A stretch of 64,000 nucleotides of DNA from a virus (lineage: Duplodnaviria; Caudoviricetes). This document shows positions 4,002 through 48,557 of this stretch, piece by piece. The notes below the pieces were generated by a model. It was not told where the DNA came from. It searched no databases and worked only from the letters and a program-made list of their open reading frames with translations. The first letter of the stretch is position 1. Each line of letters starts with the position of its first letter. Location: the IMG/VR virus record IMGVR_UViG_3300033121_001334, positions 1 through 64,000 of that record; one strand, written 5' to 3'. The position numbers and the translations under genes are program-made.

Positions 4002-4040
4002 TGACCCCGCTGGGACTCGAACCCAGGACCAACGGATTAA
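4002..4040 (-). pseudogene. 3' half of a split tRNA-Lys
   Basis: TTAATCCGTTGGTCCTGGGTTCGAGTCCCAGCGGGGTCA: intact T arm; acceptor strand pairs with the 5' half at 4814-4847. Confidence 0.8.
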
Positions 4041-4249
4041 TGCAAAAGAAGAGCAGACAAGACGATATTGACGATGAATCCAACAAAAGCAACAATAACT
4101 GCTTGCTTGCCTCTCTTTCCTTTATTGCTCCAATCTATTGCTCCAAGTAAAAGAGCAACAAGAACGCAAACAGGAAAAATAAAGGTTCCTATTGCAAAAC
4201 CCATTGCAATCTGTCCCAAAATTGTTGGCCTGCTTTGCTGATTGTTCAT
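4037..4249 (-). CDS. small membrane protein (cassette cargo)
   Basis: 70 aa, two hydrophobic helices; its TAA stop lies in the anticodon loop of the tRNA 3' half. Confidence 0.7.
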   Translation of the reverse strand: MNNQQSRPTILGQIAMGFAIGTFIFPVCVLVALLLGAIDWSNKGKRGKQAVIVAFVGFIVNIVLSALLLH

Positions 4250-4686
4250 ATTTGCTCCAACCTTTCCTTCGTGAGAACAAAGTCATCGTGGAAGTTTAGT
4301 CCCTTGGTTTGACCGTTCCTGGTCTTCTCTTTCCTGACCGCCCAACTTCTTGTTCCTACAAAATGTTCTGGTTTGAGTAGGTACATATCCCCTGATTCAT
4401 GATCATAGCAGACAATCAAGTCACAGTCTTTTTCTGTGTATCCTTTGCTTGTGCCCTTATACCAATTAGTTGTTCTTAAGGAAAATTCTCTTGCGCCAGA
4501 AGAATTTATTCGTTCGCTCGATTTGACTTGAACTTTCTTGAGTTTGCCGTCTATTACGGCAACAAAGTCAAATGGCAGATTGTCGCTTAAGGGCGCAAGG
4601 ACCGGAATATCGAACTTCGCAAACTCCCCCATTACTATTAATTGAGCTTTTTCGCCTTTACCTTTTGGATTCATATACACCTCCAA
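4246..4686 (-). CDS. PD-(D/E)XK endonuclease (free-standing, homing-type)
   Basis: PFDFVAV...KKVQVKS motif, DCDLIVCY; lies within tRNA remnants. Confidence 0.8.
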   Translation of the reverse strand: MEVYMNPKGKGEKAQLIVMGEFAKFDIPVLAPLSDNLPFDFVAVIDGKLKKVQVKSSERINSSGAREFSLRTTNWYKGTSKGYTEKDCDLIVCYDHESGDMYLLKPEHFVGTRSWAVRKEKTRNGQTKGLNFHDDFVLTKERLEQI

Positions 4687-4730
4687 ACATCTATTTCGTA
4701 GGTGTATATAAAACTCCTTCTTTTATTGAA

Positions 4731-4803
4731 TGCCCCCTGCTGGATTCGAACCAGCGGCCACTCGCTTAAAAGGCGAATGCTCTAACCACTGAGCTAAGAG
4801 GGC
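4731..4803 (-). tRNA. tRNA-Lys(TTT)
   Basis: GCCCTCTTAGCTCAGTGGTTAGAGCATTCGCCTTTTAAGCGAGTGGCCGCTGGTTCGAATCCAGCAGGGGGCA; cloverleaf, no encoded CCA. Confidence 0.92.
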
Positions 4804-4813
4804 GATATTTTTC

Positions 4814-4847
4814 AAGTCCGACGCTCTACCAACTGAGCTACGGGATC
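4814..4847 (-). pseudogene. 5' half of a split tRNA (Lys-type)
   Basis: GATCCCGTAGCTCAGTTGGTAGAGCGTCGGACTT, ends in the anticodon loop. Confidence 0.8.
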
Positions 4848-8775: not shown

Positions 8776-8845
8776 AAACCCTTGGTAGGATTCGAACCTA
8801 CTGGACTCCGTATGAAACCGGAGCGCTCACCAGAGCAGCAAGGTT
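8776..8845 (-). pseudogene. atypical tRNA-like element (8-nt anticodon loop GTTTCATA)
   Basis: Good T arm GTAGG-TTCGAAT-CCTAC, stem CTCCG/CGGAG, 4-nt D loop, imperfect acceptor. Confidence 0.6.
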
Positions 8846-8919
8846 TAACCTTTTCCCAGGATGATCAGTCCCAGTACGCAAGGTTGGCCGTTATATTATA
8901 GAGGAGGCCAAACCTCTAA

Positions 8920-11798: not shown

Positions 11799-12085
11799 TG
11801 GGCAAACCGGGATTCGAACCCAGAACCTAGCGATTATGCCTACTGACTTGAGTTTCCCCAAGAGTCGGACTGTACCTTCACCCGTTTCACTTCCTTACGG
11901 AAGAAAAGTTAGGGTGGCTGCCGTCCAGTCTCTACACCTTCGCTTTTCAGCGCTTGGCTCGGGATTGGCGTGAGTCTTTCGACCTTTAGCTTTCCCCGAC
12001 TTTGACAGCTTACTCATACAACATTCCTATTGTATGGACCCAAGTTTTCTTAAGTCGCTTGCTCTAACCGTTGAGCTATTTGCCC
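11799..12085 (-). tRNA. tRNA(CAT), probably Ile2, interrupted by a group I intron
   Basis: Exons 12053-12085 and 11799-11838 join to GCGA-CT-CAT-AA-TCGC; anticodon arm resembles enterobacterial ileX. Confidence 0.88.
11839..12052 (-). mobile_element. group I intron (214 nt, no ORF) after U33
   Basis: P1 GACU/UAAG-AAAA-CUUG/GGUC with U-G at the splice site; R GTAGAGACTG; S AAGGTACAGTCC; terminal G. Confidence 0.9.
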
Positions 12086-12231: not shown

Positions 12232-13158
12232 TTACGCAGCCTTGCAAGAAAGCTTGCGATTTCGCTCCTTCATCAGTTCCTCAACCTTGCGAACCTCCTT
12301 CGAGGAGATTTGCCGCTTCTCAGCGGGCAAGTAAGCGCCGCCGAAGAGCGACTCGCAAACCGACCAAAGACGCTCATAGTGGTAGTCGTGACGGTAGTAA
12401 CGGTAAAGATCGTCCTTCTTGCCGTCAACGATTTGGCCGACGAACTTGTTGCTGCTCAGCGGACGCCACTTCCACTCCCACTTCATGGTCTTGTCGTTGA
12501 AATCACGAACAGTCTCGCCGAACGACTTCTTCTTCTTCTCTTCAGCCGTCGCCTCGCGGAACTTGAACTCGTACCAAACCTCGCCGATCTTGTGGTACTG
12601 CGTCAGCGGCTTCTTCGGGTCGAAGTAGCTGTCGTTGCTCACGACCGTCTCTCGCCGATAGCGAGGATTCTTCTTGGTCTTGCGCAGTGTCCCGTCTCGG
12701 GGATCGACGTAAAACTCTTCGCGACCATAAGAAGTCGTCATGCTCTCGGGGCCAATGACCCCAGAAGCCATGACAGTGTTACCTTCCATGTAAGTCTTGG
12801 TCTGGACTTCGCCGAACTTAATCAAGTGCTGCCAAACATGAAACTGAATAGCGTTATTCAGGTTGAGGCCGCTCATGATCTCGCTGTACACCTTGTCCCA
12901 AGGCTGACCAATGCGAGAATTCAAGAAACGACGAAGAGGATTGAGGTTCTCGTTCAACCGCTTCTTGTCGTCGAAGGAGTTGGGCTTCGAGGTGTGAACC
13001 CTTTTCATTCCGCGAAAATCAGGAGTGTCCCAATCTTCTTCGAACGGAATGTCTTTGCAAGCCTGGCGAGTCAAATGACGGTTCTGGCGAATCCGCTCCT
13101 TACCGCAGCCGCCAGTTCGGGGGCGCTCAACCAAAACTTTTGCCATGTCTTTACGCAT
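12232..13158 (-). CDS. conserved hypothetical protein (MRKDMxKVxVERPR family)
   Basis: 308 aa from MRKDM; LNENLNPLRRFL...GQPWDKVYSEI. Confidence 0.75.
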   Translation of the reverse strand: MRKDMAKVLVERPRTGGCGKERIRQNRHLTRQACKDIPFEEDWDTPDFRGMKRVHTSKPNSFDDKKRLNENLNPLRRFLNSRIGQPWDKVYSEIMSGLNLNNAIQFHVWQHLIKFGEVQTKTYMEGNTVMASGVIGPESMTTSYGREEFYVDPRDGTLRKTKKNPRYRRETVVSNDSYFDPKKPLTQYHKIGEVWYEFKFREATAEEKKKKSFGETVRDFNDKTMKWEWKWRPLSSNKFVGQIVDGKKDDLYRYYRHDYHYERLWSVCESLFGGAYLPAEKRQISSKEVRKVEELMKERNRKLSCKAA

Positions 13159-13351
13159 TGGTCCTCTTATTAGAAAATTGAGGCTGTTTGGAAAAGAAAC
13201 CAAAACTTTTCTTGGTTTTGAATGTTAGATCAACAGAGCAATCGGGCTCGTTAAGATCATTAATTACAAAACGCTTGACCTTGCTAACCATCTCCTCGGT
13301 TCCAGAGATTTTGATTCTCAAGGTTTTTTGTTTCTTAGTCGCTTCCAACAT
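13151..13351 (-). CDS. hypothetical protein
   Basis: 66 aa, motif + SD upstream. Confidence 0.6.
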   Translation of the reverse strand: MLEATKKQKTLRIKISGTEEMVSKVKRFVINDLNEPDCSVDLTFKTKKSFGFFSKQPQFSNKRTNA

Positions 13352-13384
13352 GCTTTTCTTTTTCCGCGAAAGTTTAGTTCCGAA

Positions 13385-13458
13385 TGGGCGACCTGGGACT
13401 CGAACCCAGAACCTCTTCTACGTCAAAGAAGCGCGCTGGCCAATTGCGCCAGTCGCCC
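13385..13458 (-). tRNA. tRNA-Val(GAC)
   Basis: GGGCGACTGGCGCAATTGGCCAGCGCGCTTCTTTGACGTAGAAGAGGTTCTGGGTTCGAGTCCCAGGTCGCCCA. Confidence 0.9.
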
Positions 13459-13708
13459 GTTTTGTATTGTCCCAAGCCTTTCTACTATAAACAACGTTTG
13501 TCATGCTTGAAATATCTTCAACAAGAATGGCATGGTCCGTTCTGTCTTTGAATCTATTGCAAATCACTTCAGTTATATCATTAACTGCCTTTACTGCCGC
13601 AGCATTAGTAAGGCTCAACCCTTTTATTTGTATCTCCAAAACTGGTTCTGGTCTCAATTCTCCTTGTTCAGGAGAATGATCCGTAATGGTTATTTTGCGG
13701 ATAGTCAT
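13418..13708 (-). CDS. hypothetical protein overlapping the 5' half of tRNA-Val(GAC)
   Basis: 96 aa from MTIRK, motif + SD upstream. Confidence 0.55.
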   Translation of the reverse strand: MTIRKITITDHSPEQGELRPEPVLEIQIKGLSLTNAAAVKAVNDITEVICNRFKDRTDHAILVEDISSMTNVVYSRKAWDNTKRATGAIGQRASLT

Positions 13709-13742
13709 GCTTTTCTTTTTCCGCGAAAAGTTTAGTTCTAAA

Positions 13743-13780
13743 TTGGAGCGACAGGAATCGAACCTGTCATCCTCTGTTTT
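13743..13780 (-). pseudogene. orphan tRNA 3' half (isotype undetermined)
   Basis: AAAACAGAGGATGACAGGTTCGATTCCTGTCGCTCCAA; intact T arm. Confidence 0.7.
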
Positions 13781-14318
13781 CTGAAACTGCTTTACAAAAA
13801 ACAATCAATTCATCATCAGAGTATCTGTTTTTGGCAAGGTTAGCCATAACTGATACAAACTGAACATTTCCTTTAACATATCCTAAAGAATTGTCTATTC
13901 TATCTAAACTTGCACCATTTATAGGTTGTTTACCAATCCAGCCGTTAGTGTTTTGAGGAAGAACAAGATCCCAACCTGTATAAGGACATTTGCCTTTTTG
14001 CTTTTCCCATAAAAAACGAATATATTCTAGGTCTATATCAACTTCTTTATTTGTTCTGGTTTTAGATACACTTCTTGTTTTTAGGACTGTTGAAAACCAT
14101 CGAAAAGGAGTTAATTCATCTCTTTGATTTCCAGATTCTTTTTTTATGTTTGGATTGCCCTTTCTTGGATTAGCCTTATTACCAATAAGGCAAGCACAAG
14201 ATCTAGAGCAACAATGTTTATATCCTCTTTTTTGCGCAAGGTTGTATTGAGAAATTGTTTTATGAAACCTTTTTCTACATTCTTGGTTTTCACATTCAAC
14301 TTCAATCAAGGTCTTCAT
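13767..14318 (-). CDS. HNH-family endonuclease
   Basis: GKCPYTG...SLDRIDNSLGYVKGNVQFVSVMANLAKN; ORF ends inside the tRNA 3' half. Confidence 0.85.
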   Translation of the reverse strand: MKTLIEVECENQECRKRFHKTISQYNLAQKRGYKHCCSRSCACLIGNKANPRKGNPNIKKESGNQRDELTPFRWFSTVLKTRSVSKTRTNKEVDIDLEYIRFLWEKQKGKCPYTGWDLVLPQNTNGWIGKQPINGASLDRIDNSLGYVKGNVQFVSVMANLAKNRYSDDELIVFCKAVSENRG

Positions 14319-14392
14319 GTTTATTCCGGGTTTTTGTGATAAGAGTTTACTAAATAAATAGTCTTATCGGCTAAACCCGAAAAATTATTCAA

Positions 14393-14464
14393 TCGGCCCT
14401 CCCGCGCTTGAATCGGGTTCTAACGATTATCAGTCGTTTGCTCTACCACATGAGCTAAGAGCCG
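14393..14464 (-). tRNA. tRNA-Ile(GAT), atypical T arm
   Basis: AACGA-CTGATAA-TCGTT; T arm CCCGA-TTCAAGC-GCGGG has an A53:G61 mismatch. Confidence 0.75.
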
Positions 14465-14478
14465 CTTTCTAACAAAAG

Positions 14479-14553
14479 GGTGATCGACGGGACTCGAACC
14501 CGCAATCCTCTGGATCACAACCAGATGCTTAAACCAATTAAGCTACGACCACC
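14479..14553 (-). tRNA. tRNA-His(GTG)
   Basis: G-1 and C73 present; TCTGG-TTGTGAT-CCAGA. Confidence 0.92.
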
Positions 14554-14675
14554 ATCAAGCTGCTAGAACTCCTTGATTTTACAAGTCAAAACTAGCGGGT
14601 ACTCATTTTTGAGCAGGTTTAGTCGCTACGCTTCTAAACATGCCTTGCAGGTTTAGCTAACCTGAGTTTTCCAAA

Positions 14676-14704
14676 TAGGCACAGCCGGACTCGAACCGAC
14701 AAGC
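14676..14704 (-). pseudogene. 3' remnant (T arm + acceptor strand) of split tRNA-Val
   Basis: GTCGG-TTCGAGT-CCGGC-TGTGCCT-A; pairs with GGGCGCA at 15411-15417. Confidence 0.7.
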
Positions 14705-14875
14705 TTACTTCTTTTCAAGTTCCTCAATACGTTTTTCAAGAGATTCAACATACTTCATAAGAGGTTCAAATGCTCTTGAAAGTCGGTTTAATCTGTCTCT
14801 TAGATTGCCACCAGAAGGAATCGCATTATCTGTTCTGGTTAGACTATCAATTTCTTTTTTAATATCAGAATTCAT
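14705..14875 (-). CDS. small coiled-coil protein (cassette cargo; start MNSDI)
   Basis: 56 aa, GGAGG SD just after tRNA-Val. Confidence 0.6.
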   Translation of the reverse strand: MNSDIKKEIDSLTRTDNAIPSGGNLRDRLNRLSRAFEPLMKYVESLEKRIEELEKK

Positions 14876-14886
14876 TTTTCCTCCAA

Positions 14887-14961
14887 TAGGCCCTCGGGGT
14901 GACGATCCCCGTACCTCTTCGGTGTAAACGAAGCGCTCTAGCCAGCGTGAGCTAAGGGCCT
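14887..14961 (-). tRNA. tRNA-Val(TAC), non-canonical T loop
   Basis: AGGCCCTTAGCTCACGCTGGCTAGAGCGCTTCGTTTACACCGAAGAGGTACGGGGATCGTCACCCCGAGGGCCTA. Confidence 0.8.
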
Positions 14962-15374
14962 GTATGTCGCTCCTGGTAGTGGAGCTTAGCATGGCAATTC
15001 CTGCAAAGAACCATGCATTTTTCTATCTCTTTCATAATGCGTTCTAGGCTCATGCCTTTACGAACCATTATGCTAACTTCAATTTCTTTTTCCTGCGGAT
15101 CTCTGTGATGAAAGTCAAGACAAGCAATATGTGATTCTCGACAAACTTCACAAGGATGATTTTTCCTGTAATCGTTTAGAAACTCCCTGTTTCTTTCAAT
15201 AATCTTTTTGCGCCAGATTTTTGCATCTTTTTTCTTTTGGGCTGCATTTTCTGGATTTTGATACCACTTCTTATTGTATTCGCTATGGTAAGCGAGTTTC
15301 TTTTCTCTTTCTTTTTGAGGCATAACAGGTTCTCCTGTTATACCTATTCGACTACTTCTTTTACACTCCTTCAA
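14952..15374 (-). CDS. HNH endonuclease
   Basis: CEVC...CLDFHHRDP...KCMVLCRNCHAKLH; last codons overlap the tRNA-Val 5' end. Confidence 0.88.
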   Translation of the reverse strand: MKECKRSSRIGITGEPVMPQKEREKKLAYHSEYNKKWYQNPENAAQKKKDAKIWRKKIIERNREFLNDYRKNHPCEVCRESHIACLDFHHRDPQEKEIEVSIMVRKGMSLERIMKEIEKCMVLCRNCHAKLHYQERHTGP

Positions 15375-15377
15375 TTT

Positions 15378-15417
15378 CCGTGTAAAGGTGGCACTCTAGC
15401 CATTGAGTTATGCGCCC
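15378..15417 (-). pseudogene. 5' half of split tRNA-Val(TAC)
   Basis: GGGCGCATAACTCAATGGCTAGAGTGCCACCTTTACACGG, truncated after the anticodon loop. Confidence 0.8.
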
Positions 15418-15429
15418 AAACCCTGAAGT

Positions 15430-15729
15430 TTAGTTCTGACCTTCCGGCTGAACTTCTTCAGTTTTCATTTCTTTCTGCTTCTTGATCTCTTCAGATCTTT
15501 CCTTGAACCATCGGCCAATATGGCCCTGCATTGCGTAAATGTGACCCTCGTTCTCGCTAAGTTCGCTTTCCTTGATGAACCTGGTAAGCTCAAGAGCAAG
15601 AGCCTTATTCAGGGTAATAGTGATGTTACCCTTCATATGCTCAGGGTTTGCTGCGTCAAAAGGCTGAAGAATGAACACAGGCTTCTGAAGCGGACGACGA
15701 TTTCTGACAGTTTTGGGGGAGTCGGACAT
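15430..15729 (-). CDS. hypothetical protein (start MSDSP)
   Basis: 99 aa; stop is the TAA of a motif copy. Confidence 0.65.
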   Translation of the reverse strand: MSDSPKTVRNRRPLQKPVFILQPFDAANPEHMKGNITITLNKALALELTRFIKESELSENEGHIYAMQGHIGRWFKERSEEIKKQKEMKTEEVQPEGQN

Positions 15730-15803
15730 GGATTTGCTCCAAGTGGTAAAAGTAAACACTCAAAAGATACATCGTACCTTTCTGCTTTCCACAATCAAGT
15801 CAA

Positions 15804-15875
15804 CGCGCCGTGGGAGGTTCGAACTCGCTTTTCCCGATTTGGAGGCGGGCGTCTTACCAATAGACGAATCGGCGC
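15804..15875 (-). tRNA. tRNA-Trp(CCA)-like, degenerate
   Basis: CCCGC-CTCCAAA-TCGGG; mismatches in the anticodon, T and acceptor stems. Confidence 0.55.
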
Positions 15876-15973
15876 AGTGTTACAAGCTATTCTGTTGTCA
15901 AAGAAAAAACCCCTCAAGTTTTTAGAAGGGATTTTTCCAAAAGCTTTGAAATAACTGATAAAGGAGTTCAGTT

Positions 15974-16432
15974 ATGTCAAAGTATCAGGAAATGACCCCA
16001 GAAGAAATCGAAGAATACAGAAGAAAACGTAGAGAATATTACCAGAATCTAACAAAAGAAGAAAAAGAAAGAAGAAGAATACAAAGAAGAGAAAGACGTA
16101 GAAAAAATGGAAAACCAGAAAAAGAATTAGAAGCTAATAGAAAATGGGCTGCCAAAAACAATATCAAGATTCAAAAGCAAGCTCAAGATTTGAAACAAAA
16201 ATGTGTAGAACTAAAAGGTGGAAAGTGTTTTGCTTGCAATAATTCTTTCCCGTCTTGTGTTTTTGATTTTCACCATAGAGATGTTAATCAAAAAGAAGAA
16301 CAATTATCGGTTTTGATCTACAAAGCTCACGGAGAAATGACTCAAGAACTATTATCTGAACTTCATAAATGTGATCTCCTTTGCTCAAACTGTCATAGAA
16401 TACATCACCATGTGAAACAAAAAACCCCTTGA
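15974..16432 (+). CDS. HNH endonuclease (antisense to tRNA array)
   Basis: GGKCFACNN...FDFHHRD...KCDLLCSNCHRIHH; AAGGAG SD. Confidence 0.88.
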   Translation: MSKYQEMTPEEIEEYRRKRREYYQNLTKEEKERRRIQRRERRRKNGKPEKELEANRKWAAKNNIKIQKQAQDLKQKCVELKGGKCFACNNSFPSCVFDFHHRDVNQKEEQLSVLIYKAHGEMTQELLSELHKCDLLCSNCHRIHHHVKQKTP

Positions 16433-16499
16433 ATAAACTCAAGGGGTTCCGCAGACCTGTGGACATACAGCAAGTAGTCAACAGTCGCTACCCCTTGAG
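16415..16499 (-). promoter_or_regulatory. attenuator: antiterminator 16490-16499/16438-16447 versus terminator 16438-16447/16424-16432 + U tract
   Basis: CTCAAGGGGT pairs with ACCCCTTGAG (10 bp); ACCCCTTGA-GTTTAT-TCAAGGGGT-TTTTT. Confidence 0.8.
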
Positions 16500-16543
16500 G
16501 TAATGACATGCCAAATCACCTGATGTACAACTATGCTGTTCAT
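16478..16543 (-). CDS. attenuator leader peptide MNSIVVHQVIWHVITSRGSDC
   Basis: 21 codons, GGAG SD; codons 4-14 are Ile x3, Val x4, His x2, Trp, Gln. Confidence 0.75.
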   Translation of the reverse strand: MNSIVVHQVIWHVITSRGSDC

Positions 16544-16576
16544 TTCAAAAATCTCCGCCCAACATTGGGCTACCCA

Positions 16577-16605
16577 ACTGTATCGGCTTTTTCCGCAAAA
16601 GTCAA
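16577..16605 (-). promoter_or_regulatory. sigma70-type promoter TTGACT-N17-TACAGT
   Basis: -35 at 16600-16605, -10 at 16577-16582. Confidence 0.7.
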
Positions 16606-16743
16606 CAATCTTTTCACGCTTTCTCTAGTTTCCTAAAATCCTTCATTTTCCGCTTACGGAAACTAGGCCATTTTGGGAAACTGCTAAATGCGATTAAGAC
16701 CCCGATTCTCACCCATAACGATTATGCTTCACAAATTCCTTCT

Positions 16744-17142
16744 TTATTGCGAAACTTTTCCGTAAATTTCTGCGCTTTCAATCGTGCCTGTTGGAATAGT
16801 AATCAAAGATCTAAAACTGGGCTCTTTGTTTCCAGCTTCAAACATTGAGTCAACTCCAATAGTAACAAATTCTTTTTTTTCGCCTATAAAAGCAACAAAA
16901 CCGGAAGTGCAAACCTTGCTTGGCCCGTCAGGAACTTCGCCAGGCTTGAGTACAGAATCCGGATCGAATACTGCGCCCTTCCAAATAACCTGAACTATAT
17001 TCCCAATTTCAGCCTTGGCAAAAAACTCTTCAGAGTTCATAAACTTCTCCTTTACTATCATGTCTATCGACAAGAGAGTATTACAAGGAGAAAATCCAGA
17101 ATCCTCTTCAGTTCTGACTATTGAATTTACGAATCGCGCCAA
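16744..17142 (-). CDS. hypothetical protein (start probably further downstream)
   Basis: ORF track; Sm/SH3-like beta-rich segment. Confidence 0.55.
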   Translation of the reverse strand: MARFVNSIVRTEEDSGFSPCNTLLSIDMIVKEKFMNSEEFFAKAEIGNIVQVIWKGAVFDPDSVLKPGEVPDGPSKVCTSGFVAFIGEKKEFVTIGVDSMFEAGNKEPSFRSLITIPTGTIESAEIYGKVSQ

Positions 17143-18912: not shown

Positions 18913-18963
18913 TGGCCCCGATGGGATTCGAACCCCTACGCCTTTTTACGGGCTACGGATTTT
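18913..18963 (-). pseudogene. 3' half of split tRNA-Leu
   Basis: AAAATCCGTAGCCCGTAAAAAGGCGTAGGGGTTCGAATCCCATCGGGGCCA; long variable arm; pairs with GGCCCTG at 20026-20032. Confidence 0.82.
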
Positions 18964-19423
18964 TCACATTTCTTCCTCTCCAAGTTGGAGTCAATGCGTG
19001 GCAGTTGCAACACAAAAGTTCTAGATTTTCTTTTCGGTTATCAGTTCTATCACCATTTTTGTGTTCAATTTCTAAAGGAGCGATCTCTCCTTGCCATTCT
19101 GTTATTTTACACTTTTCACATTGATGACCTCGTTCCGAAATCAAATGTGGTTTTAAAGAAGAAAGCTTATTGTATTCTGACCAGTCTTTTAATCTTTTCC
19201 CAACGTTCCAAGCACTACCAGTCCAATGAGAACAATCCAGATTTAGCCTCTGGAGTGTTTTTCTCATATTGTTGTAGTTGCCACCTGCAACTCTGAGATC
19301 AAGGGCCTTCAAAAGCTCTGCCATCGAGTTGACTTCTTTACACTTTTGAATAATTTGTTCATCGGTGTAGCTTCTGTATTTTCTTGCCATAATCCACCTC
19401 CATAGATGGATTACAATTGGCAA
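18953..19423 (-). CDS. HNH endonuclease
   Basis: CEKC...LEIEHKNGDRTDNRKENLELLCCNCH; ORF ends in the tRNA 3' half. Confidence 0.9.
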   Translation of the reverse strand: MPIVIHLWRWIMARKYRSYTDEQIIQKCKEVNSMAELLKALDLRVAGGNYNNMRKTLQRLNLDCSHWTGSAWNVGKRLKDWSEYNKLSSLKPHLISERGHQCEKCKITEWQGEIAPLEIEHKNGDRTDNRKENLELLCCNCHALTPTWRGRNVKNP

Positions 19424-19456
19424 TCGAATTATCCTTCTTCGTCTACCAATTCCTAA

Positions 19457-19775
19457 TGGACTGACCGGGACTTGAACCCGGATGGTGTTTGAATACCTGC
19501 GGATTTTCTTACCACTTCAGCTTTCGCCGACTGCCCTTTTCCATCAAGGTACTTGGGGTCTTACGTTTGTGGTCTGGACTGTACCTTCATCCGTTCTGCT
19601 TCTTACGAAGAGTTTTGGATGACCCAATTGCAGTCTCTACGGCTTCCTTTGTAGGTTTGCCTCGGAATTGGGATTTTACACCGTTTCCCGATACTCTGGG
19701 TTTCATTTACAAGATTACTCTTGTAACGCTCAAATTGTCTAAGTCCGCTGCGTCTGCCAATTTCGCCATCAGTCC
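19457..19775 (-). tRNA. tRNA-Leu(TAA) with group I intron
   Basis: Exons 19741-19775 and 19457-19507 join to GCGGA-CT-TAA-AA-TCCGC. Confidence 0.9.
19508..19740 (-). mobile_element. group I intron (233 nt, no ORF) between anticodon positions 34 and 35
   Basis: 5' AGACAATTTGAGC recalls the cyanobacterial/plastid trnL intron; R CCGTAGAGACTG; S AAGGTACAGTCC; terminal G. Confidence 0.9.
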
Positions 19776-19782
19776 AATTATT

Positions 19783-19983
19783 CTATTCTTTGCGCGAATA
19801 ATTTTGCACAGACAATTTATCTATTTGTTCTTGTTGAGATTTAATAATACTTAAGATTTTCAAAAAATCTCCAGCCATAACAAAAAAAGTATTATCTCCC
19901 TTAATAGGAAATTTTCCTCCTTTACCAGCTTTATCCATTCTTTCTTTAACGTTTTGAATAAGTTCCTCAATCTCGTTCTTCAT
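19783..19983 (-). CDS. hypothetical protein (cassette cargo)
   Basis: 66 aa, GAAAGGA SD. Confidence 0.65.
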   Translation of the reverse strand: MKNEIEELIQNVKERMDKAGKGGKFPIKGDNTFFVMAGDFLKILSIIKSQQEQIDKLSVQNYSRKE

Positions 19984-19993
19984 ATTTGTCCTT

Positions 19994-20389
19994 TCAAAAA
20001 GTCCGATGCGTCTGCCGTTCCGCCACAGGGCCGATAATCTGAGAAACAGTCATTTTGCGAACAGGTAAAATGTTGTGGTCCAAGAAGTGATTGAGGCAAT
20101 CTTCCACTTCGTCCAAGAAGCTATCGCAGGCGGCAATTCTGTTAGAGGGAAGATCTTCTCTCATTTCAAGAATCGTTCTGTAAATCGAAATCAAGTCAAT
20201 AACTTTGCATTCGATTTTAGATTCTCGCGCAAAAGTAAAAGCGTCCGAAATGAGATCCAAATCGGGCTTTCTTGCGGATTTCAATGATTGAAATGCAGAA
20301 AGAGCTTTTTCTTTGCGAAGCTCGTTCTGGTTTGGAGAGTGAATATCTACTTTAATAGAACGAAAATCAAGAGTATCAAGCATCGTCAT
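19994..20389 (-). CDS. hypothetical protein reading through the tRNA-Leu 5' half
   Basis: 131 aa; C terminus GPVAERQTHRTF is encoded by the tRNA remnant. Confidence 0.6.
   Translation of the reverse strand: MTMLDTLDFRSIKVDIHSPNQNELRKEKALSAFQSLKSARKPDLDLISDAFTFARESKIECKVIDLISIYRTILEMREDLPSNRIAACDSFLDEVEDCLNHFLDHNILPVRKMTVSQIIGPVAERQTHRTF
19999..20032 (-). pseudogene. 5' half of split tRNA-Leu
   Basis: GGCCCTGTGGCGGAACGGCAGACGCATCGGACTT. Confidence 0.82.
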
Positions 20390-47249: not shown

Positions 47250-48557
47250 TTACCCTTTCAAGACAGCAACAGGCAGAAGTTCGATTTGGATATCAACCAA
47301 GTCCTTTTGGTTGTTCATAACAACGTCAATGCTTTTATATGCGCTTCCAAGTTCGTCATGAGCTTCTTGAACTCCATAAAGCTCAACAGAACCAAGCTGC
47401 GAAGCCTGCGAAGGGTCAAGCCCGTCAGCAATACGCTTCTTAGCGGTTGTTCTACTGAAGTTTCGACCCGCACCATGCGAACAAGAGTTGAAGCTGTCTG
47501 GGTTTTCCTTACCCTTTACAATGTAGCTCTTGCTGCACATCGAACCAGGAATAATTCCAACAGTCGTCTTGCGAGCGAGCGTTGCTCCTTTGCGATGAAC
47601 CCATACATTCTCACCATGATGATGTTCAATCGTTGCGTAGTTATGGTGAATGTTGATAATGTCCTTGAGAGCAGCCGTCTGGTGATATTGCTCTCTAACA
47701 GCTTCCTGACAACATATCATCATGAGTTTTCTGTTTACAAGAGCGTAATCTTGCGCAGCCAAAAGGCTTGCAATGTACCATTGTCCTTCGTCAGAATCAG
47801 CGGGCAAGAATGCTAGTTCTTCATTAGGAAGGCGAGTGTAGTATCTCTTGCAGGTCTTGACGGCAAGGTGATGGAACTTCTTGGCAAGCTGAGCGCCAAA
47901 GCCTCTGGAACCGCTATGAAGCATGAACCAGGCGTTGCCTTCTGCGTCTTGCTGAAGCTCAATGAAGTGGTTTCCGCCACCAAGAGTTCCTATTTGTATT
48001 TTTGCTCTGCACCATGCAGGATAATCAAGAGTCTTACAGAATTCTTTTGCTTCCTCAACCTTTTTCTCGACATCAGCAATATGGTCAATAATACGCTTAT
48101 GACCAAGCCAGAGATCGCTTCTAGAGCGGTTTTTACCTTCGCCAACAGGGACATCAGCGGCAATGGCTGTCATGAGCTTCTTGATATCAAGGTCTGCGAC
48201 TTTGATACCTGAATTCCATGCACACATTCCGCACCCGATATCCACCCCGACCGCATTTGGTGAAACGGCATTATGAAGCGGCAGGACGCAGCCGACTGGG
48301 ACTCCAAAACCTGTATGAGCGTCGGGCATGAGCGCAACATGGCGATAGACGCAAGGAAGGCGAGCAGCTTCGCTGACTTGACGAATTGCGCCTTCTTCTA
48401 GGTTGAGGATGGGCTTGCCGGTTTCTGAATCGACATCCTTCGTCCAGCACTTGACAGGAACGCCGCCAGTTTGCTCGGGCGGGATTACGACGGGTCCGAG
48501 TTTTTCTTCAATGGTTGACATGATGTGATTATAGGATAAAAAATGGCACAAAATCAA
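47250..48557 (-). CDS. rtcB: RtcB RNA 3'-phosphate/5'-OH ligase
   Basis: MPDAH, GVDIGCGM, GTLGGGNHFIE, HSGSRG, HHNY, HRKGA, PGSM, SHGAGR. Confidence 0.95.
   Translation of the reverse strand: MILCHFLSYNHIMSTIEEKLGPVVIPPEQTGGVPVKCWTKDVDSETGKPILNLEEGAIRQVSEAARLPCVYRHVALMPDAHTGFGVPVGCVLPLHNAVSPNAVGVDIGCGMCAWNSGIKVADLDIKKLMTAIAADVPVGEGKNRSRSDLWLGHKRIIDHIADVEKKVEEAKEFCKTLDYPAWCRAKIQIGTLGGGNHFIELQQDAEGNAWFMLHSGSRGFGAQLAKKFHHLAVKTCKRYYTRLPNEELAFLPADSDEGQWYIASLLAAQDYALVNRKLMMICCQEAVREQYHQTAALKDIINIHHNYATIEHHHGENVWVHRKGATLARKTTVGIIPGSMCSKSYIVKGKENPDSFNSCSHGAGRNFSRTTAKKRIADGLDPSQASQLGSVELYGVQEAHDELGSAYKSIDVVMNNQKDLVDIQIELLPVAVLKG

Follow-up and report, generated by a model that had tools for sequence, protein, structure and literature searches.

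SegB of phage T4 is a free-standing GIY-YIG homing endonuclease encoded in the T4 tRNA cluster (PMC2330249; PMC13096335), and the association of segB with tRNA genes is widespread (PMC13096335). The enzyme recognises tRNA genes through a conserved T-loop motif (PMC2330249) and targets the tRNA gene of nuclease-free relatives, with co-conversion favouring inheritance of the nuclease together with neighbouring tRNA genes (PMC2330249; PMC13096335). The free-standing HNH endonuclease gene mobE splits ribonucleotide reductase genes in Aeromonas phage Aeh1 (PMC3045599; PMC2988022). RNA hairpins that sequester the ribosome-binding site (RBS) have been described for T4 I-TevI/II/III, segB and Aeh1 mobE (PMC2988022). 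Here we describe a locus at positions 14676-15417 of the phage record IMGVR_UViG_3300033121_001334 in which a resident tRNA-Val(UAC) gene lies in two pieces, on the minus strand, around a 668-nt insert. The insert encodes an HNH-type endonuclease and a complete second tRNA-Val(UAC), and it looks like a selfish mobile element that mends its own damage by means of a replacement tRNA. We consider it probable that this is a homing-endonuclease cassette in a resident tRNA gene, carrying a divergent, presumably cleavage-immune replacement isoacceptor in the manner of 'cleave and rescue'.

The window, by which we mean the whole 64-kb stretch analysed, comprises the first 64 kb of one 74,563-bp phage contig with 44.7% GC. 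The locus consists of the following parts, given with the evidence for each:

15417..15375, minus strand: 5′ part of the resident 'type A' tRNA-Val(UAC), nt 1-43 (sequence, allele table and empty allele)
14707..15374, minus strand: inserted cassette of 668 nt with leader, HNH gene, inner tRNA and small open reading frame (ORF) (missing from flank-joining contigs of four runs)
15374..15324, minus strand: leader of 51 nt (sequence)
15318..15345, minus strand: RNA hairpin of 12 bp over the HNH Shine-Dalgarno sequence and ATG (minimum free energy and covariation)
14952..15323, minus strand: HNH-type endonuclease gene, 123 aa (PHROG 2255, E 1e-25; PHROG 3106, E 1e-23)
14887..14961, minus strand: intact 'type B' tRNA-Val(UAC), the replacement (ARAGORN; Rfam tRNA, 46.5 bits)
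14705..14875, minus strand: 56-aa ORF with its own Shine-Dalgarno sequence (ORF; without known family)
14676..14706, minus strand: 3′ part of the type A tRNA-Val(UAC), nt 44-76 (sequence and empty allele)

The 5′ part holds, over 15417..15378, the acceptor strand GGGCGCA, the D-arm, the anticodon-stem strand CCACC, the loop TTTACAC and then GG. The 3′ part holds the variable loop with one extra C, the T-arm, the acceptor 3′ strand TGTGCCT and the discriminator A. An earlier reading of this DNA, made from its letters alone (the original prediction), had proposed that an HNH gene splits tRNA-Val(TAC) and that the insert brings a replacement tRNA-Val(TAC) of different body and a small ORF. Each of these parts was recovered: the 5′ half, HNH gene and remnant in minus-strand order, the inner tRNA by ARAGORN at 14961..14887 (46.5 bits in Rfam) and the 56-aa ORF at 14875..14705. 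The pairing that it had noticed between the acceptor strands TGTGCCT and GGGCGCA extends over 7/7 positions (5 Watson-Crick, 2 G-U), and the anticodon is the same inside and outside the cassette, the outer loop being TTTACAC and both genes tRNA-Val(tac). The parts are tightly packed. The HNH stop codon falls inside the inner tRNA (10-nt overlap, 14952-14961), with the final three sense codons and the stop of the HNH ORF lying within the inner tRNA 5′ end in 5/5 occupied alleles, and the stop codon of the 56-aa ORF reaches two bases into the former variable loop.

The original prediction had suggested comparative genomics as a means of finding an empty allele. We searched for one by aligning contigs of four public runs (X2, X3, X4 and X9; three studies, wastewater) to window positions 14400-15800. 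A contig in each of the four runs connects 14702 to 15378, skipping 675 bases and carrying an identical six letters between them, and the flanks of these joining contigs are identical to the window (0 mismatches over 248 + 423 nt in X3 record 10). Read on the minus strand, the six letters give TGG, which produces a perfect CCACC/GGTGG stem, and the opening of a variable loop of 5 nt. ARAGORN calls the joined sequence a clean 73-nt tRNA-Val(tac). We conclude that an uninterrupted gene built of exactly these two halves exists in nature, and that the 3′ remnant is the 3′ end of the same tRNA-Val and not derived from a tRNA of another specificity. Parts of the cassette are without contig cover in X2, X3, X4 and X9, an observation that carries no weight alone. 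Where the empty allele has TGG, nt 41-43 of the window are AAA, and the outer anticodon stem is therefore left with 2/5 pairs. Because the TGG is missing from the occupied form, the empty form is not derivable from it by deletion or splicing; the occupied allele is the derived state.

Diverged forms of the empty allele were found in relatives of the phage, reached through homologues of a 99-aa ORF directly upstream of the locus. Three related contigs (L001, L008 and L009) carry an intact type-A tRNA-Val(UAC), and no HNH gene, between the 99-aa ORF and tRNA-His; their type-A bodies are diverged from that of the window. Run X3 holds both the empty allele of the window type and a cassette contig of the L013 type, so potential donors and recipients co-occur. 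The cassette is thus present or absent at one site among close relatives, with the target intact in the empty allele, as in intronless homing by a free-standing endonuclease gene.

We compared the window allele (W) with four further occupied alleles: L012, L007, L013-L015 and L016. HNH homologues of at least 66% identity with readable DNA all lie at this one locus, a count that leaves out P0012 (the closest HNH, 94%) and P0011. The left end of the cassette, TTGAAGGAGTG..., directly follows tRNA nt 43 in W, L007, L012, L013-L015 and L016, and when the five occupied alleles are aligned with the empty one, the insertion point falls between nt 43 and 44, at the boundary of anticodon stem and variable loop. 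The position is exact because the 3′ part of L013 opens with a complete variable loop. The pairing left in the outer tRNA, and what follows the inner tRNA, differ among the alleles:

W: acceptor pairs 7/7, anticodon-stem pairs 2/5; 56-aa ORF after the inner tRNA
L012: acceptor pairs 5/7, anticodon-stem pairs 2/5; 56-aa ORF after the inner tRNA
L007: acceptor pairs 6/7, anticodon-stem pairs 4/5; no small ORF
L013-L015: acceptor pairs 4/7, anticodon-stem pairs 3/5; unrelated 50-aa ORF
L016: acceptor cut off by the contig end, anticodon-stem pairs 5/5; no small ORF before the contig end

Since anticodon stems are degraded and acceptor halves mismatched in relatives, the outer tRNA is not under maintaining selection; judged by its sequence, the outer tRNA-Val is dead and the resident gene was destroyed by the insertion. 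The 5′ halves vary among occupied alleles, and 5′ and 3′ halves assort independently: W has both 'W' halves, in L012 the 5′ half is that of W and the 3′ part is of L001 type, and in L007 the 5′ half is of L001 type and the 3′ part that of W. In the displayed sequence the upstream flank and 5′ half of L007 match those of the empty L001 letter for letter, up to the junction. Recombination break points therefore lie at the cassette ends, the outcome expected of double-strand-break repair in which co-conversion tracts are short. The bases next to the insertion, nt 41-43 and the variable loop, are altered in the occupied relative to the empty allele, as co-conversion would leave them.

The HNH protein matches PHROG 2255 (E 1.2e-25) and PHROG 3106 (E 1.1e-23), both annotated as HNH endonuclease, and a profile of 19 homologues matches the McrA HNH region in the PDB (E 0.008). 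Residues C58, C61, H72, H73, C107, N109, C110, H111 and H115, which comprise the catalytic and Cys4 zinc positions, are invariant in 19/19 homologues. The AlphaFold2 model (predicted local distance difference test score, 94) has a strand at 69-73, a strand at 103-107 and a helix at 108-121, consistent with an architecture of two N-terminal helices and a Cys4 zinc/beta-beta-alpha-metal module. The best structural matches are HNH nucleases, at weak scores: Gme HNH with Z 4.2 (root-mean-square deviation 3.4 over 63 residues) and GVE2 HNH with Z 3.9. Foldseek returned E 0.37 or worse, and the HNH matches from Foldseek and VIA-align were weak throughout. Among alleles, the ratio of non-synonymous to synonymous divergence (dN/dS) is 0.04-0.20 at dS 0.7-1.9, from which the HNH gene is evidently under purifying selection. 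The HNH genes of the window and L007 form a mosaic, about 100% identical at the ends and 60-75% in the middle. The hairpin over the RBS has a minimum free energy of -17.4 kcal/mol (z -4.8; 0/200 shuffles as good) and 11 consensus pairs over five alleles, of which 4 show compensatory changes on both sides. A paralogue of the cassette HNH gene lies on the opposite strand of the same array (15974-16432, plus strand; PHROG 2255, E 1e-18; 26% identity).

The inner tRNA is a complete isoacceptor, 64% identical to the outer one and with the same anticodon. W, L007, L012 and L013 share it at 100% identity, though their HNH proteins are only 77-94% identical, and in L016, L010 and L011 compensatory changes affect its acceptor, anticodon and T stems. 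From these patterns of sequence change, the HNH and inner tRNA parts of the cassette look functional. Type-B copies are located as follows:

14887-14961 of the window, minus strand: type-B tRNA-Val
L010:2435-2510: type-B tRNA-Val
L016:1112-1186: type-B tRNA-Val

The T-loop of the type-B tRNA reads ATCGTCA, as against the canonical TTCGAAT. This non-canonical loop (A54, T58; ATCGTCA/G), in place of T54...A58, is kept in all type-B copies while the stems covary. Nt 39, nt 48-49 and the T-loop set type B apart from all type-A alleles and are plausible immunity determinants of the type-B tRNA gene.

The 56-aa ORF is variable, dispensable cargo. It is kept in L012 with 2 aa changes (dN/dS about 0.07), missing in L007, and replaced by the unrelated 50-aa ORF in L013-L015. 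It matches no Pfam or PHROG family, and its homologues among 5.8 billion proteins amount to one cluster, the L012 copy. We considered it as kin of a 66-aa ORF in a tRNA-Leu cassette of the same genome (see below) and rejected this, as the two are unrelated on comparison.

On the homing-cassette reading, the cycle would begin with co-infection by a cassette-bearing phage and a cassette-free relative. The HNH enzyme would cut the relative's unbroken type-A tRNA-Val gene near nt 40-50. Repair would take the cassette-bearing genome as template, with homology supplied by the tRNA halves and flanks, and would bring the nuclease gene and the replacement tRNA into the recipient along with a few adjacent bases. 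The replacement tRNA would restore GUA/GUG decoding, and its gene is presumed to escape the nuclease because of its differences at nt 39, nt 48-49 and the T-loop. Two features could hold the nuclease in check. The hairpin over the RBS would keep HNH translation low, and, more tentatively, an RNase P cut at the 5′ end of the inner tRNA would yield a nuclease mRNA without a stop codon, a non-stop message by which maturation of the spare tRNA would be tied to limited nuclease expression.

We weighed this reading against three others. One holds that the insert is an intron, removed by self-splicing or by an endonuclease together with phage RtcB, so that the outer tRNA-Val still functions. The phage does encode RtcB (47250..48557), group I introns occur elsewhere (11846-12061, 61 bits, and a sub-threshold match inside the inner tRNA-Leu), and the joined form is also present in the RNA library X2. 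However, ORFs and the tRNA occupy nearly the whole insert, Rfam gave no ribozyme family match within 14676-15417 even at E up to 10, and neither Intron_gpI nor any other ribozyme matched in 13000-17000 at E up to 10. The joined form has TGG and a different variable loop, neither encoded by the occupied DNA, and it also occurs in X3, X4 and X9, labelled 'DNA?'; it is therefore an allele and not a spliced RNA. Once the insert was removed, moreover, the outer anticodon stem would have 2/5 pairs in W and L012 and 3/5 in L013, with mismatched acceptor halves in L012, L007 and L013. With no ribozyme, an unencoded TGG and a decayed outer tRNA, we rejected intron and bulge-helix-bulge (BHB)-type splicing, and a still functional outer tRNA-Val is very improbable. 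We give practically no credence to the idea that the flanking pieces are unrelated tRNA debris pairing by coincidence: two of the pairs are G-U, and the chance for a random 7-mer, estimated at about 1 in 1000, is not vanishing in a tRNA-rich region, but a gene of exactly both pieces occurs in four runs and folds as tRNA-Val(tac), and all relatives have tRNA-Val(UAC) at the same locus. Integrase-mediated insertion into the tRNA gene was also rejected. No integrase or transposase was found in or beside the cassette (ORFs, Pfam and PHROG), and the inner tRNA is complete and 64% identical, with no duplicated 3′ end.

The remaining alternative is a passive relic, that is, one old illegitimate insertion shuffled since by ordinary homologous recombination, with an HNH protein that acts otherwise or elsewhere and no self-drive. 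The confinement of HNH relatives to one locus, the deep divergence of the HNH alleles (dS 0.7-1.9) and the window/L007 mosaic, which points to general recombination, all fit it, as does the fact that tRNA genes across the array have been swapped far more than spacers. So do L010 and L011, where the type-B tRNA and an intact type-A gene form a tandem that lacks an HNH gene. Yet a relic would not account well for strong purifying selection on a site-destroying nuclease, which is what a homing cycle predicts, nor for the piling up of recombination break points at the cassette ends, presence and absence within otherwise identical flanks, and a regulatory hairpin typical of phage homing endonuclease genes (PMC2988022). 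We regard a passive relic as unlikely, and a homing cassette with a rescue tRNA as the probable explanation. Several observations weigh against the latter. The L010/L011 tandem means that the type-B tRNA also exists independently of the nuclease, and the age of the HNH alleles (dS to about 1.9), always at this single locus, means that the pattern could reflect long residence and ordinary phage recombination. The HNH protein has no Pfam HNH match and its fold matches are weak (Z 4.2), and the evidence from the runs consists of assembled contigs, not raw reads. The cleavage target of the HNH enzyme and the immunity of the inner tRNA gene are inferred from position and from sequence differences, and homing itself is likewise an inference.

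Homing endonucleases usually spare the host gene, either by intergenic placement or by hiding in self-splicing introns or inteins. The cassette would represent a third solution, for an RNA gene, in which the gene is broken outright and a working divergent copy supplied. If the nuclease targets the uninterrupted tRNA gene, the system would be a natural counterpart of engineered cleave-and-rescue gene drives and a concrete mechanism by which tRNA genes could be replaced so quickly in phage arrays. In that case the nuclease would count as a new DNA enzyme specific for a tRNA gene, and the immunity determinant may lie in the unusual T-loop of the rescue tRNA. The system is directly testable, as natural empty and occupied alleles with identical flanks exist. 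More tentatively, we suggest as a possibility that these phages carry natural 'cleave-and-rescue' drives directed at their own tRNA genes, in which the nuclease would destroy the resident isoacceptor gene of co-infecting relatives and install itself and an immune spare tRNA.

On this view, cleave-and-rescue logic seems to recur in this genome, at a tRNA-Lys gene with a PD-(D/E)XK nuclease and at a tRNA-Leu gene with an HNH_3 nuclease. At the tRNA-Lys locus (4002-4847, minus strand), the halves of a tRNA-Lys(UUU), when joined precisely at anticodon nt 34/35, give a clean tRNA-Lys of 73 nt (ARAGORN). They enclose an intact but divergent tRNA-Lys(ttt), a PDDEXK_5 nuclease (PF11645, E 1e-20) and a small hydrophobic ORF. 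At the tRNA-Leu locus (18913-20032, minus strand), the halves enclose a 66-aa ORF, an interrupted tRNA-Leu(UAA) and an HNH_3 nuclease. The break in this inner tRNA-Leu(UAA) is at 34/35 and spans about 230 nt; a group I intron matches there below threshold (19554-19750, 21.8 bits, E 0.006). Outer and inner splice-site sequences at the Leu locus are nearly alike, so the inner ribozyme could in principle see the outer junctions too. Another pairing of a nuclease with same-anticodon tRNAs is found in the relative L001 (L001:6640-7890), where a PD-(D/E)XK-like ORF, a tRNA-Ile(gat), an HNH-like ORF and a second, 89-nt tRNA-Ile(gat) follow one another. In the window, a 183-aa endonuclease (13767-14318, minus strand; PHROG 3322, E 1e-23) lies between tRNA-Ile and tRNA-Val(GAC); in the same interval, relatives carry a second 'tRNA-Ile(gat)' of 83-93 nt that the window does not have.

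The 123-nt spacer between tRNA-Val(UAC) and tRNA-His (14553-14675, minus strand) is 97-99% identical among relatives (L001, L007 and L012), whereas the tRNA-His genes of the same relatives are 63-91% identical and the type-A tRNA-Val genes 60-90%. Judged by these sequence identities, turnover is far quicker in the tRNA bodies than in the Val/His spacer. An arms race over nuclease target sites, possibly together with host tRNA-cutting defences, given RtcB, could explain diverged tRNA bodies between conserved spacers. The Val/His spacer may itself be functional, as a processing signal, a small RNA or a promoter. A 34-nt indel in this spacer, bounded by a short direct repeat, sets L008 and L012 apart from the others.

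The window has 13 tRNA genes (ARAGORN), every one on the minus strand and with several nuclease genes interspersed. Gene order is kept in relatives as 99-aa ORF, tRNA-Val(UAC), His, Ile, Ile, Val(GAC); the 99-aa ORF has no Pfam match. No promoter-like site was found on the minus strand of the cassette. The nearest one (16605..16577) lies upstream of the tRNA array, which is probably transcribed from it. ARAGORN also called a tRNA-like gene with a 4-base anticodon (ttca) at 8776-8846 (minus strand), and the group I intron at 11846-12061 (minus strand; Rfam Intron_gpI, 61 bits) is above threshold. The genome also encodes a helicase and a full-length RtcB RNA ligase (47250..48557, minus strand; PF01139, E 6e-106; PHROG 'tRNA splicing ligase', E 1.5e-111). 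RtcB in the company of a large tRNA array suggests repair of tRNAs cut by host defences; no evidence ties RtcB to the Val cassette. Near-identical DNA is present in wastewater, activated-sludge and river metagenomes. In a blastn search against 50,697 deposited phage genomes the tRNA genes alone matched (mostly tRNA-His), with no close relative. Exact-pattern scans of viral_contigs and metagenome_contigs for the 5′ half, the 3′ remnant and the left junction gave zero matches, so these two collections evidently hold no relatives of this phage.

Among other known elements that bear on the locus are the group I intron homing endonucleases of bacterial tRNA genes, such as I-Ssp6803I in tRNA-fMet. 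As here, the nuclease gene lies within a tRNA gene and the empty allele is the presumed target; there, however, self-splicing restores the tRNA, whereas the present insert has no ribozyme and lies in an outer tRNA that is decayed. Integrative elements with tRNA genes as their insertion sites bring along a copied 3′ segment of the tRNA and so, like this cassette, offset damage at the insertion site with replacement sequence. The cassette differs from them in that it has no integrase or att duplication and that its replacement is a whole divergent tRNA. ClvR, an engineered 'Cleave and Rescue' gene drive, uses Cas9 and follows the same logic of cleavage and immune rescue that we propose for the cassette.

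The closest resemblance is to SegB and mobE. Like segB, the HNH gene is a free-standing nuclease gene in a phage tRNA array, and an RBS hairpin has been reported for segB as well (PMC2988022). The T-loop motif by which SegB recognises its target is the very motif altered in the replacement tRNA, which by analogy makes the altered T-loop a suggestive clue to immunity. Unlike SegB, a GIY-YIG enzyme encoded between tRNA genes, the HNH enzyme is encoded inside a tRNA gene of which both halves are left, and its gene is fused to a replacement tRNA of the same anticodon. Like mobE, the HNH gene splits its host gene without an intron or intein and has an RBS-sequestering hairpin; in Aeh1, however, the protein fragments reassemble into an active enzyme, whereas the split RNA cannot, and a complete spare gene would come to its rescue. 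In a limited library, which gives no proof of absence, we found no account of an endonuclease gene that lies within a tRNA gene and is accompanied by a replacement tRNA. Nucleases in phage tRNA clusters (SegB) and free-standing HNH enzymes that split genes (mobE) were already known (PMC2330249; PMC3045599). What sets the present locus apart is a combination of three features: an intronless insertion in a tRNA gene, a linked rescue tRNA with the same anticodon, and a nuclease ORF that overlaps the rescue tRNA.

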